From contig CAMJOZ010000001.1 of NCBI GenBank assembly GCA_946407635.1, forward strand, positions 2,763 through 66,762: a stretch of DNA of 64,000 bases, in the 5' to 3' direction. The notes under the pieces are model-generated. The model was not told the DNA's origin. It ran no database searches and saw nothing but the letters and a program-made list of their open reading frames with translations. The DNA comes from an uncultured Bacillales bacterium (GTDB lineage Bacteria > Bacillota_I > Bacilli_A > Acholeplasmatales > Anaeroplasmataceae). A program made the translations under genes and the position numbers. This document shows, one piece after another, positions 38,022 through 40,412 of the stretch; the stretch's first letter is position 1; every line of letters begins with the position of its first letter.

Positions 38022-40412
38022 CTATTTTGAAACAACCAAAGCTGTATAAGTTCCACCAGAACCATATGAAATAACTAATACATTTTTCATCTTGTCTGAA
38101 GTAACAACTTTATTTGATACTTTACCATTTGAAATAGTGTAACCATTATCCTTTTTAATATCGCCTGATAACATTAATGAAGCATGAACTAAAGCCATTG
38201 AAGCTGCAGAAGCTCTTGCCTCACCAATGTGAGATTTTACCTCAAGTACATTAATATTAGATAATTTATTACCAAATACTCTTTGTAAAGAATTGATTTC
38301 AATATCATCAACTTCTTTAATACCATTTGCAAAACCAGAAACAGTATCAATATCATTAATAGTTAAATTAGCATCCTTTAAAGCATCGTTAATTGCTCTA
38401 TCTAATGCTTCATCAGATCCCTTTAATGTAGCAAAATCAACACCCTTATAAGCCATACCATATCCTAATAATTTAGCATACTTTTTAGCACCACGAGATT
38501 CTGCATTCTTACCATTTTCTAAAATGATTGATGTAGAACCATCAGATAATGTAAATCCATTTTTATTATCAAATGGCATAGCTACATCATTTGATACCAT
38601 ATTTAACTTATTATATAATTCATTAATTATTTCAATATTATCATCAGTACCTGTTGCAACAACATAAGTTTCCTTATTTTGTCTTAAAATATTCATACCA
38701 TAAGCAACAGATTGTAAACCTGATTGGTTACCATTTGTAACTGTTACATTATAACCTTTAATACCAGAACAAATTGATAAATATCCACCAGCAGCATTAT
38801 ATACTGTGTTAGGGAACTTAAATGCTGAACCATTAGAGTTACCCTTTTCAACGATATTTTCTGTGAATTGGCAGCAAGTACCTAAAGCTCCAAGTGATGA
38901 ACCTACAACAATACCAATTGATGTTGCATTATCATCATTGACTTCAATATTAGCATCCTTTAATGCTTGCATACCTGATACTGCTTGTAATTGGCAGAAA
39001 TTATCAAGCTTACGATAAAACGCCATCTTTAAACCTACTTCATTATAGTCATCAACAGTTACAGTTGAATGAATACTATTAGCTTCAGGTTTAACATTTT
39101 CGTTAATTTTATTAATATAATTATTTACTCCATTACCCATTGGAGAAACGATACCTAAACCAGTAATATAGATACCATCTTTATTATTTTCTTCTTTTAC
39201 GTTTCCTTCATTCTTAGAGAAAATAATACTTGCATTATTTCCACCAAATGCGAATGAATTACTCATAACTGTATTTAATTCTTTATCTTTGCTCTTATTT
39301 GGAACGAAATCAATCTTTCCAGCTCTTTCTTTAAGTTTTTCTAAATCTTCATCAGAATAACCTAAAGTTGCAGGAACCTTGTTTTCAGTTAAAGCCTTAA
39401 CAGCAAACACAGCTTCAATAGCACCAGCAGCACCTAAGCAGTGACCAACCATTGCCTTAGTTGATGAAACACTTAAATTATCATTTTCGTTATCGAAAAT
39501 TGTATGAAGTGATAAGAATTCTGCTTCATCATTTTTTGCTGTACCAGTACCATGCGCATTTATATAACCAATATCACTCTTCTTAACACCAGATGTTTTA
39601 ATAGCTAAATTAATAGCATTCATTTGACATTCTCCATCTGGACGAGGTGCAGTAATGTGATGTGCATCACTTGTAACACCAGAACCTAATACTTCACAAT
39701 AAATGTGAGCACCTCTTGCTTTTGCATGCTCATATGATTCAACAACTAAAGCACCAGAACCTTCACCAAGTGTAATACCACTTAAATGATTAAATGGTGA
39801 ACAGGGATTTGAATCAAGTGCATGAAGTGCTAAAAATCCTGCATAAGGAACAGATGCGAAAGCATCAGTACCACCAGCGATTACTGCTTCAGCCTTACCA
39901 CTTCTAATTAAATCGCATGCATAAGCAATTGAAATAGTACCTGCAGCACATGCATTAGCAATATTTGTTACAACACCACCTGCATTGATATAGCTTGCAA
40001 CACTTGAAGCGATAGCTGAAATAGGCATTTTAGCAACATCATTTTTATCTTTATTATTGCGATAATAATGATCAATAGAAACAGCGCCGCCAACGCAGCT
40101 ACCCATAATTACTGATACATTTTTATCATTTTCTTTAATTTCTAATTTAGAATCTTCTAAAGCTTCTAATGTAGCTTTAATACATAATTTAGAAACTCTA
40201 TCTAAATTTTCTGTATTAGGAATCTTATCTAAATCATCATAATGAACTTCAGCTGCTAAATTAGCATAGCAGTTTTCAGTATCAACTGTATGAGTTTCTT
40301 TAATTCCACATACTGAATTAAGTGCATTTGTAAAACATTCTTCTACATTGTTTCCAATTGCACTTATTACACCTAATCCTGTGATAACACAACGATTTTT
40401 ATTATTAGTCAT
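38022..40412 (-). CDS. Didomain beta-ketoacyl-ACP synthase: an intact FabF-type KS fused to a catalytically degenerate KS-beta/CLF-like domain
   Basis: 796 aa. Domain 1 has NIANACAAGTISIAYA (Cys), DAHHITAP, INAHGTGT, STKAMVGH and FAFGGNNAS. Domain 2 starts near residue 410. It aligns as TVTNGNQSGLQSVAYG (Cys position is Asn/Gln) and SGFANGIKE (His lost), with EVKSHIGE retained. Confidence 0.85.
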   Translation of the reverse strand: MTNNKNRCVITGLGVISAIGNNVEECFTNALNSVCGIKETHTVDTENCYANLAAEVHYDDLDKIPNTENLDRVSKLCIKATLEALEDSKLEIKENDKNVSVIMGSCVGGAVSIDHYYRNNKDKNDVAKMPISAIASSVASYINAGGVVTNIANACAAGTISIAYACDLIRSGKAEAVIAGGTDAFASVPYAGFLALHALDSNPCSPFNHLSGITLGEGSGALVVESYEHAKARGAHIYCEVLGSGVTSDAHHITAPRPDGECQMNAINLAIKTSGVKKSDIGYINAHGTGTAKNDEAEFLSLHTIFDNENDNLSVSSTKAMVGHCLGAAGAIEAVFAVKALTENKVPATLGYSDEDLEKLKERAGKIDFVPNKSKDKELNTVMSNSFAFGGNNASIIFSKNEGNVKEENNKDGIYITGLGIVSPMGNGVNNYINKINENVKPEANSIHSTVTVDDYNEVGLKMAFYRKLDNFCQLQAVSGMQALKDANIEVNDDNATSIGIVVGSSLGALGTCCQFTENIVEKGNSNGSAFKFPNTVYNAAGGYLSICSGIKGYNVTVTNGNQSGLQSVAYGMNILRQNKETYVVATGTDDNIEIINELYNKLNMVSNDVAMPFDNKNGFTLSDGSTSIILENGKNAESRGAKKYAKLLGYGMAYKGVDFATLKGSDEALDRAINDALKDANLTINDIDTVSGFANGIKEVDDIEINSLQRVFGNKLSNINVLEVKSHIGEARASAASMALVHASLMLSGDIKKDNGYTISNGKVSNKVVTSDKMKNVLVISYGSGGTYTALVVSK

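Follow-up and report, generated by a model that had tools for sequence, protein, structure and literature searches.

Introduction

Pairs of ketosynthases (KS) in which one partner is active and the other is a catalytically dead paralog are known from several lipid and polyketide pathways, and these are the described systems closest to the subject of this report, a 796-aa protein with two KS domains encoded in a 64,000-nucleotide stretch of DNA (contig CAMJOZ010000001.1, assembly GCA_946407635.1; hereafter the window) from an uncultured Acholeplasmatales-like gut/rumen bacterium. In the type II polyketide synthases (PKS), an active KS-alpha and an inactive paralog, KS-beta, are separate polypeptides (actinorhodin, 1TQY; ishigamide Iga11/Iga12, 6KXD; aryl-polyene ApeO/ApeC), the interface between the two sets the acyl pocket, and priming in those systems proceeds by decarboxylation of malonyl-acyl carrier protein (ACP). 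The inactive subunit of the aromatic PKS, the chain-length factor (CLF), carries Gln where active ketosynthases have the catalytic Cys, and ketosynthases with a Cys-to-Gln replacement are known decarboxylases (KSQ domains, FabF C163Q). In PfaC, part of a multi-domain megasynthase, an active KS is followed by a dead KS in one chain and the two form an intramolecular pseudo-dimer (the KS-CLF didomain, 6RIW). In anammox bacteria, amxFabF2 and amxFabFmut (9S5H), a FabF-derived active subunit and a FabF-derived subunit with a mutated catalytic triad, are the products of two separate, unfused genes within a cluster for ladderane lipids; only the heterodimer decarboxylates malonyl-ACP and produces acetoacetyl-ACP, which allows initiation free of FabH, and the Cys position of the dead subunit is occupied by Val or Thr and not by Gln (bioRxiv 10.64898/2026.05.19.726425). 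Fatty-acid synthesis (FAS) also starts without FabH, via an enzyme of the ketoacyl-ACP synthase (KAS) I/II type or malonyl-ACP decarboxylation, in the cases of Pseudomonas aeruginosa FabY, Pseudomonas putida FabB and the malonyl-ACP decarboxylase MadA (PMC10869286); these are homodimeric or unrelated enzymes of Proteobacteria, and none is a fusion of an active with a dead KS. The cyl clusters, which carry cylE/F/J/K-type and ABC genes, yield a polyene product with no enoyl reduction. Their ketosynthase in group B Streptococcus, CylI, is presumably a didomain as well, as a Paenibacillus locus described below suggests.

The window protein has something in common with each of these. In function it comes closest to the anammox FabF heterodimer, in structure to the PfaC KS-CLF and in architecture to the CylI-type didomains. 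It was originally predicted to be an unusual covalent fusion of KS and KS-beta next to acetyl-CoA carboxylase (ACC) genes; fusion as such is not unusual, given the solved structure of PfaC and the at least 96 didomain clusters reported here, but the use of this known design principle, the KS/CLF pair, in a housekeeping-type fab/acc/plsX operon appears to be undescribed. The open-access literature turned up the KS-CLF didomain of the polyunsaturated fatty acid synthase, the anammox preprint and a paper on the ene-reductase FLR, and nothing on this Firmicute protein. The interpretation that we consider somewhat probable is that of a free-standing, single-chain KS/CLF-type pseudo-heterodimer, with a self-priming domain 1 and a structural domain 2, acting as the sole KS of a housekeeping-type FAS operon.

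Domain architecture and catalytic residues

The 796-aa open reading frame (ORF) with two KS domains lies on the minus strand of the predicted interval (Table 1): the reverse strand encodes one unbroken protein, while the plus-strand frame is riddled with stop codons and offers no coding reading. Pfam assigns both KS families to it twice (two copies of ketoacyl-synt and two of Ketoacyl-synt_C), and the domains are joined by a linker that is weakly conserved in the family (46% column identity). An AlphaFold2 model of the whole 796-residue chain, built from a 58-sequence alignment, has a pLDDT of 89 and a pTM of 0.93, and predicts an intramolecular KS dimer with one active and one dead site in a single chain. 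The top PDB match of this model in Foldseek was the PfaC KS-CLF didomain 6RIW (TMq 0.77), which was also the sole match to span both domains; single-chain FabFs covered one half of the didomain (TMq about 0.45). The likeness to PfaC is one of fold and domain order, with a sequence identity of 17%. Unlike the megasynthase, the window protein ends after domain 2 and has discrete type II partners (ACP, FabG, FabZ and FabD).

Domain 1 aligns end to end with Bacillus subtilis FabF (E = 1.6e-79) and possesses the full FabF catalytic set, with every motif quoted in the original prediction in place (NAC155AAG, DAHH252ITAP, NAH287GTGT and STK319AMVGH). The register of domain 2, which had been aligned by eye, was determined in three ways: phmmer against Escherichia coli FabF, BLASTP of domain 1 against domain 2, and a MAFFT alignment of 194 KS domains. 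All three concur that the catalytic Cys is replaced by Asn562, with Gln563 adjoining, the first His by Asp659 and the second His by Phe694, and that the Lys is retained as Lys726; none of them places a Cys and both His in domain 2. The AlphaFold model puts both Cys155 and Asn562 two residues ahead of the start of the equivalent helix (157–170 and 564–577, respectively). The three alignments and the helix register together bear out the by-eye alignment, including the Asn with its neighbouring Gln and the loss of both catalytic His.

Sequence comparisons place domain 2 with the FabFs and with no particular dead partner. Its match to E. coli FabF (E = 2e-35) is far stronger than that to the actinorhodin CLF (1tqy_B, E = 4.7e-14). 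The anammox pair ranked near the top of the PDB sequence searches (9s5h_B for domain 1, E = 1.4e-74; 9s5h_C for domain 2, E = 5.5e-34), though domain 2 is no nearer to the anammox dead subunit than to E. coli FabF (121 and 125 bits, respectively). A special kinship of domain 2 to the actinorhodin CLF, Iga12 or amxFabFmut was dropped, as ordinary FabF scores equally well or better, and no CLF-type model was matched by domain 2 in the NCBIfam scan. In comparison with the type II PKS pairs, the two partners are fused and domain 2 is full-size, whereas ApeC is only half-size (PMC8358021); in comparison with the aromatic CLF, domain 2 is nearer to FabF, has its Gln at the position after the Cys equivalent, and belongs to an operon without cyclase or aromatase genes. 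A recent internal duplication was ruled out, as the two domains share only 26% identity (BLASTP), less than either shares with FabFs.

The didomain departs from the format of the FabF/KAS II homodimer, a single domain of ~410 aa with two active sites. Against the FabF equivalog model TIGR03150 (cut-off, 493.75 bits), domain 1 alone scores 355.5 bits and domain 2 about 171 bits, and the whole protein reaches 513.9 bits. The automatic name ‘FabF / KAS II’ is thus an artefact of the duplication, since the NCBI cut-off is passed solely by adding the scores of the two domains. The score against the PfaA model TIGR02813 was 103 bits, compared to a cut-off of 1010 bits.

Conservation across the family

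At E ≤ 1e-10, a protein search yielded 2895 sequences, of which the 120 homologs listed (782–822 aa, 63–100% identical) were used for residue statistics. The domain-1 residues Cys155, His252, His287, Lys319 and Phe389 are invariant (120/120). In domain 2, the Cys-equivalent position 562 is occupied by Ala (n = 65), Ser (n = 24), Asn (n = 14), Thr (n = 8) and others, making the Asn of the window protein a minority state. The first-His equivalent, position 659, is variable, the second-His equivalent, position 694, is Phe in 117 homologs, and position 785, equivalent to the gate residue F400 of FabF, is Ser, Ala or Phe. Several other positions around the former active site are close to invariant (Asn560, 118/120; Gln563, 117/120; Lys726, 115/120; Glu731, 118/120; Arg733, 120/120). 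Identity to the window protein is 62% for domain 2 compared to 78% for domain 1, and domain 2 evolves faster than domain 1 except at residues 534–553 (PNTVYNAAGGYLSICSGIKG), which are about 99% conserved and align with residues of about 133–152 in E. coli FabF. We take this segment, from FabF structures, to lie at the dimer interface and to line the acyl pocket of the partner subunit.

The fusion is real, conserved and widespread. That the 796-aa ORF might be an assembly or sequencing artefact joining two adjacent KS genes has practically no probability left: in 16 of 16 loci of the same family no stop or frameshift splits the gene, 15 being uninterrupted and one (L004) ending at a contig edge, and the same unbroken ORF occurs in independent NCBI, ENA, JGI and Logan assemblies, with thousands of member sequences. 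Nine of these loci (L001–L009) are from Acholeplasmatales, Anaeroplasma, Erysipelotrichaceae, Ruminococcaceae and Clostridia genome assemblies and were read by tblastn, and in the metagenome loci (L010–L016) the gene translates exactly to the protein looked up. The short cluster members that were checked are mostly fragments, several keeping the C-terminal end of domain 1 and others starting or ending inside domain 2. One member of 354 aa (P0230) has its first residue precisely where domain 2 begins, which would fit a split form as well as a truncated gene call. Homolog lengths, intact loci, the pTM of 0.93 and the match to 6RIW all agree with the predicted covalent union of an active and a dead KS of KS/CLF type.

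These residue states bear directly on the function first proposed for domain 2, a KS-beta that decarboxylates malonyl-ACP via its Asn/Gln, supplying acetyl-ACP and so replacing FabH. The proposal draws on the decarboxylase activity of Cys-to-Gln ketosynthases, of which FabF C163Q mutants appear among the PDB sequence and fold matches, on the absence of FabH from every locus inspected, and on the retention of Gln563, Asn560, Lys726, Glu731 and Arg733, which indicates that the region of the former active site is under selection. The Gln, though, is one position off, at Cys+1, in three independent alignments and in the secondary-structure register of the model, the Cys position itself is not conserved and is mostly Ala or Ser in the family, and domain 2 has lost the two His and the gate Phe on which KS-type decarboxylation relies. 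With no nucleophile, neither His and no gate Phe, condensation or His-dependent malonyl decarboxylation in domain 2 is implausible. Further, the anammox pair decarboxylates with a dead subunit that has no Gln, so a Gln in the dead partner is not required. A CLF-type decarboxylase in domain 2 is unsupported by these data and we regard it as improbable.

The fatty-acid synthesis operon

The didomain is the second gene of a tight, 13-gene operon on the minus strand, running from 40740 down to 30106 in the order ACP1, KS-KSβ, FabG, FabZ, flavoprotein, ACP2, AccB, AccC, AccD, AccA, FabD, biotin protein ligase and BioY (Table 1), and it is the sole condensing enzyme of this ACC-carrying operon. An E. 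coli FabH probe, validated by its match to 1HN9 (698 bits) and by detection of Gram-positive FabHs at 220–250 bits, together with Pfam, found no FabH in the window or in 20 related loci (about 380 kb); the only matches of the probe were weak and to the Cys region of the didomain itself. No other KS occurs in the window or the 20 related loci, and a second KS, FabI and FabK are all absent among the window ORFs scanned. The missing FabH of the original prediction is therefore upheld for the window and these loci, while decarboxylation by domain 2 as its explanation is not.

Table 1. Positions in the window of the didomain ketosynthase, its parts, and the genes and signals of the surrounding operon
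Feature	Position	Strand	Length or residues	Remarks
KS-alpha/KS-beta didomain ketosynthase	38022..40412	minus	796 aa	Whole ORF including stop codon
Domain 1	39213..40412	minus	Residues 1-400	Active FabF-type ketosynthase
Domain-1 Cys155 codon	39948-39950	minus		Other catalytic residues His252, His287, Lys319; gate Phe389
Linker	39174..39212	minus	Residues 401-413 (13 residues)	NEGNVKEENNKDG
Domain 2	38025..39173	minus	Residues 414-796	KS fold of full size; catalytic triad absent
Domain-2 Asn562 codon	38727-38729	minus		Other marked residues Gln563, Asp659, Phe694, Lys726, Glu731, Arg733
Terminator-like hairpin after purE	40917-40938			Scan; just upstream of the promoter-like site
Promoter-like site	40800..40827	minus		TTGACA, 16 nt spacer, TG-TAAAAT, 11/12 matches; consensus scan; upstream of ACP1
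ACP1	40498..40740	minus	80 aa	GLDS motif; Pfam PP-binding; under every NCBIfam ACP cut-off
FabG-type 3-oxoacyl-ACP reductase	37284..38012	minus		Pfam, NCBIfam
FabZ-type 3-hydroxyacyl-ACP dehydratase	36841..37287	minus		Pfam, NCBIfam
Flavodoxin-like FMN reductase-fold protein	36082..36831	minus	249 aa	Candidate enoyl-ACP reductase
ACP2	35856..36098	minus	80 aa	IDSL motif; nearer to canonical AcpP models; Pfam, NCBIfam
Acetyl-CoA carboxylase block	32280..35850	minus		Pfam
accB	35431-35850	minus
accC	34061-35428	minus
accD	33205-34080	minus
accA	32280-33203	minus
FabD malonyl-CoA:ACP transacylase	31372..32280	minus
Biotin protein ligase	30668-31375	minus
BioY biotin transporter	30106-30684	minus		Last gene of the operon
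Terminator-like hairpin after bioY	30052-30075			Scan

The flavoprotein between FabZ and ACP2 has a Flavodoxin_2/FMN_red fold and an invariant motif, P-C-x-G-C-L-S-C-W-x-R-T-x-G-x-C, with cysteines spaced C56-x2-C59-x2-C62-x7-C70. Its best PDB sequence match, a weak one (E = 1e-8), is 7D38, the structure of FLR, an FMN ene-reductase that acts on the flavone C2-C3 double bond (FLR paper). In Foldseek with a model of the flavoprotein, FLR ranked 19, and azoreductases and quinone reductases scored equally well, so the fold alone does not identify the substrate; database names are limited to ‘flavodoxin family protein’ and ‘WrbA’. In each of the three gene arrangements found (see below) the gene is part of the fab operon, and as no known enoyl reductase is present there, the flavoprotein is a candidate for this step. 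The context suggests that it may belong to a new class of enoyl-ACP reductase, perhaps one with an Fe-S cluster.

The operon has two distinct ACPs, of which ACP1, before the didomain, shows a likeness to PKS-type carriers, and ACP2, before accB, is nearer to AcpP. In every related locus ACP1 immediately precedes the didomain KS, and in the Ruminococcaceae-type loci it is the only ACP near the core block. A division of ACP1 and ACP2 between priming and elongation is possible. At the downstream end of the operon, the terminator-like hairpin after bioY overlaps a perfect-consensus sigma-70-type promoter (TTGACA, 16 nt, TG-TATAAT; 30031-30075, minus strand) for the next gene downstream.

Related loci and the wider didomain superfamily

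Every same-family locus of sufficient extent retains the flavoprotein along with the core of ACP1, KS-KSβ, FabG and FabZ, in one of three gene arrangements. The first, as in the window, is found in Acholeplasmatales and Erysipelotrichaceae-type loci, one of which (L012) has a holo-ACP synthase upstream and an acyl-ACP thioesterase downstream of the operon. The second, in which PlsX adjoins the end of the core block, is that of Ruminococcaceae and Clostridia (L006, L009). The third has the order ACP, KS-KSβ, FabG, FabZ, FabD, AccD, AccA, flavoprotein, PlsX and belongs to a very abundant human-gut species (90% cluster with 6345 members). PlsX comes immediately after the block in L006, L009 and L014–L016.

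Beyond this family, a search with domain 2 alone against 1.84 billion representatives (50% identity clusters) showed that at least 96 of the top 150 representatives examined are free-standing didomains of 730–975 aa. In 96/96 of these the N-terminal domain has its catalytic Cys, second His and Lys intact, and in 89/96 the first His too; the full triad is present in the C-terminal domain of none (0/96); a few have a Gln exactly at the Cys position. One such locus (L020; Paenibacillus shirakamiensis-like contig, 4721-12439) is a cyl-like cluster of the granadaene type and encodes a short-chain dehydrogenase/reductase, a 4HBT thioesterase, a holo-ACP synthase (ACPS), FabD, a ketoreductase (KR), ACP, a dehydratase (DH), a GCV_T protein (cylF-like) and an 812-aa didomain KS, which suggests that the CylI-type ketosynthases are fusions of a KS with a dead KS. 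With this locus as a proxy, the window protein and the CylI type share a free-standing didomain of ~800 aa in Firmicutes beside ACP, KR, DH and FabD. The window operon differs from the cyl clusters in having no cylE/F/J/K-type or ABC genes and in possessing the flavoprotein and ACC, and its relatives PlsX. Another locus (L017; Clostridium fungisolvens BLZR01000001, 75-17016) comprises AccB, AccC, a fused AccDA, a radical-SAM enzyme, four peptides of 50–59 aa, a BtrH_N protein, a metallo-beta-lactamase-fold protein, ACP, the didomain KS, KR, DH and an FtsX/ABC exporter, a gene content that suggests biosynthesis of a lipid-peptide hybrid. The nearest outgroups (L018, L019) encode ACPS, ACP, the didomain, KR, DH, FabD and AccDA, and have neither the flavoprotein nor PlsX. 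As the contexts differ among didomain loci, the cassette behaves as a mobile type II module, and the branch of the window is the one that gained a candidate for the reductase and became linked to ACC, PlsX and the supply of biotin, as is typical of primary fab operons.

Housekeeping or specialised synthesis

This diversity of contexts makes room for an auxiliary or specialised lipid pathway, in which the didomain would be a product-specific KS/CLF for a particular acyl chain or polyene-like product, on the pattern of cyl-type and other type II PKS-like clusters, beside a canonical FabH/FabF/FabK synthase encoded elsewhere. The same ACP, KS-KSβ, KR and DH cassette serves in the cyl-like L020 and in the radical-SAM/peptide/ABC locus L017 with its own ACC genes, and neither the flavoprotein nor PlsX occurs in the closest outgroup loci; in the window itself, ACP1 is under all the NCBIfam AcpP cut-offs and domain 1 alone, at 355 bits, stays below the FabF equivalog cut-off of 493.75 bits. 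In the family of the window, however, the cassette is always accompanied by the flavoprotein plus either ACC/FabD/biotin ligase genes or PlsX, in three gene orders, and the window operon, made up of FAS, ACC and biotin genes plus the flavoprotein, contains no tailoring, export or peptide genes and no cyclases or aromatases. The host is also Acholeplasmatales-like, and two synthases would be unexpected if its genome is as small as those of cultured relatives, which is assumed here. A specialised pathway is the less likely explanation, with perhaps a minor share of the probability. A housekeeping-type fatty-acid synthase, with ACC, FabD, biotin ligase and BioY in the same operon and with PlsX, holo-ACP synthase and acyl-ACP thioesterase in relatives, is a rather probable reading of the operon in this uncultured Acholeplasmatales-like gut/rumen bacterium.

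Under the housekeeping-type reading, domain 1 would be a working FabF-class ketosynthase and domain 2 a FabF-derived, full-size paralog acting as its obligatory dimer partner, which would complete the interface and shape the floor of the acyl pocket of domain 1. Priming would most likely be performed by domain 1 itself, by analogy with the anammox pair: initiation without FabH would begin with decarboxylation of malonyl-ACP to acetyl-ACP by domain 1, the acetyl group would be loaded on Cys155 and then condensed with a second malonyl-ACP, and elongation would be carried out by the same site. Enoyl reduction would probably be the task of the Cys-motif flavodoxin-like protein of the operon. Another route of priming, in which rumen organisms would obtain short acyl primers by the reversible reactions of PlsX or acyl-ACP synthetase, is purely speculative.

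Several observations weigh against the combination of a self-priming domain 1, a structural domain 2 and a housekeeping role. Asn560, Gln563, Phe694, Lys726, Glu731 and Arg733 are near-invariant around the former active site of domain 2, and pure scaffolding gives no obvious need for conserved active-site residues there; they may plug the vestigial pocket and stabilise it, and a residual function of domain 2 is possible. The survey spans 64 kb of this genome and, for each relative, a stretch of no more than 22 kb, and a canonical FabH/FabF/FabK set may be present elsewhere. The assignment of the reductase draws on context, fold class and a weak ene-reductase sequence match. Finally, with relatives in clearly specialised clusters (L017, L020) and outgroups (L018, L019) without flavoprotein or PlsX, the cassette is not intrinsically a housekeeping one.

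Implications

For the gut and rumen Firmicutes and Acholeplasmatales-like bacteria of this widespread group (Ruminococcaceae, Erysipelotrichaceae, Lachnospiraceae-labelled metagenome-assembled genomes and relatives of Anaeroplasma), a broader proposal may be advanced tentatively, and with rather less than even expectation: the KS/dead-KS fusion would replace FabH and the homodimeric FabF, and the Cys-motif flavoprotein, a putative distant relative of FLR with a flavodoxin fold and possibly an Fe-S cluster, would replace FabI/K/L/V in the synthesis of membrane fatty acids. If the operon is the main FAS of these organisms, the FAS II parts list (FabH; a FabF/FabB homodimer; FabI/K/L/V) is incomplete for a large and abundant share of the gut and rumen microbiota. 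This would bear on which commensals are hit or spared by inhibitors of FabI, FabK, FabH and FabF, and metabolic reconstructions would score such genomes as deficient in initiation and enoyl reduction. For enzymology, the protein offers a small, soluble, natural KS/CLF fusion with which to probe the share of the dead subunit in initiation, pocket shaping and ACP choice. Through at least 96 didomain lineages, it also links the KS dimers of primary metabolism with the KS/CLF pairs of polyene and polyketide synthesis.

Other features of the window

A gene of the DegV family (fatty-acid-binding, FakB-like; 46362-47249, minus strand) lies about 6 kb from the operon, and from its family the organism may also import exogenous fatty acids. 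Two minus-strand ORFs were without family assignment, one of 573 aa (41420-43141) between purE and formate-tetrahydrofolate ligase with no Pfam or NCBIfam match, and one of 438 aa (50144-51460) with no Pfam match. Across positions 1-64000, the minus strand carries nearly all ORFs of at least 100 aa, every 2-kb bin has a negative GC skew, and GC content ranges over 24–36%; the window appears to lie wholly on one replication arm of a low-GC genome.

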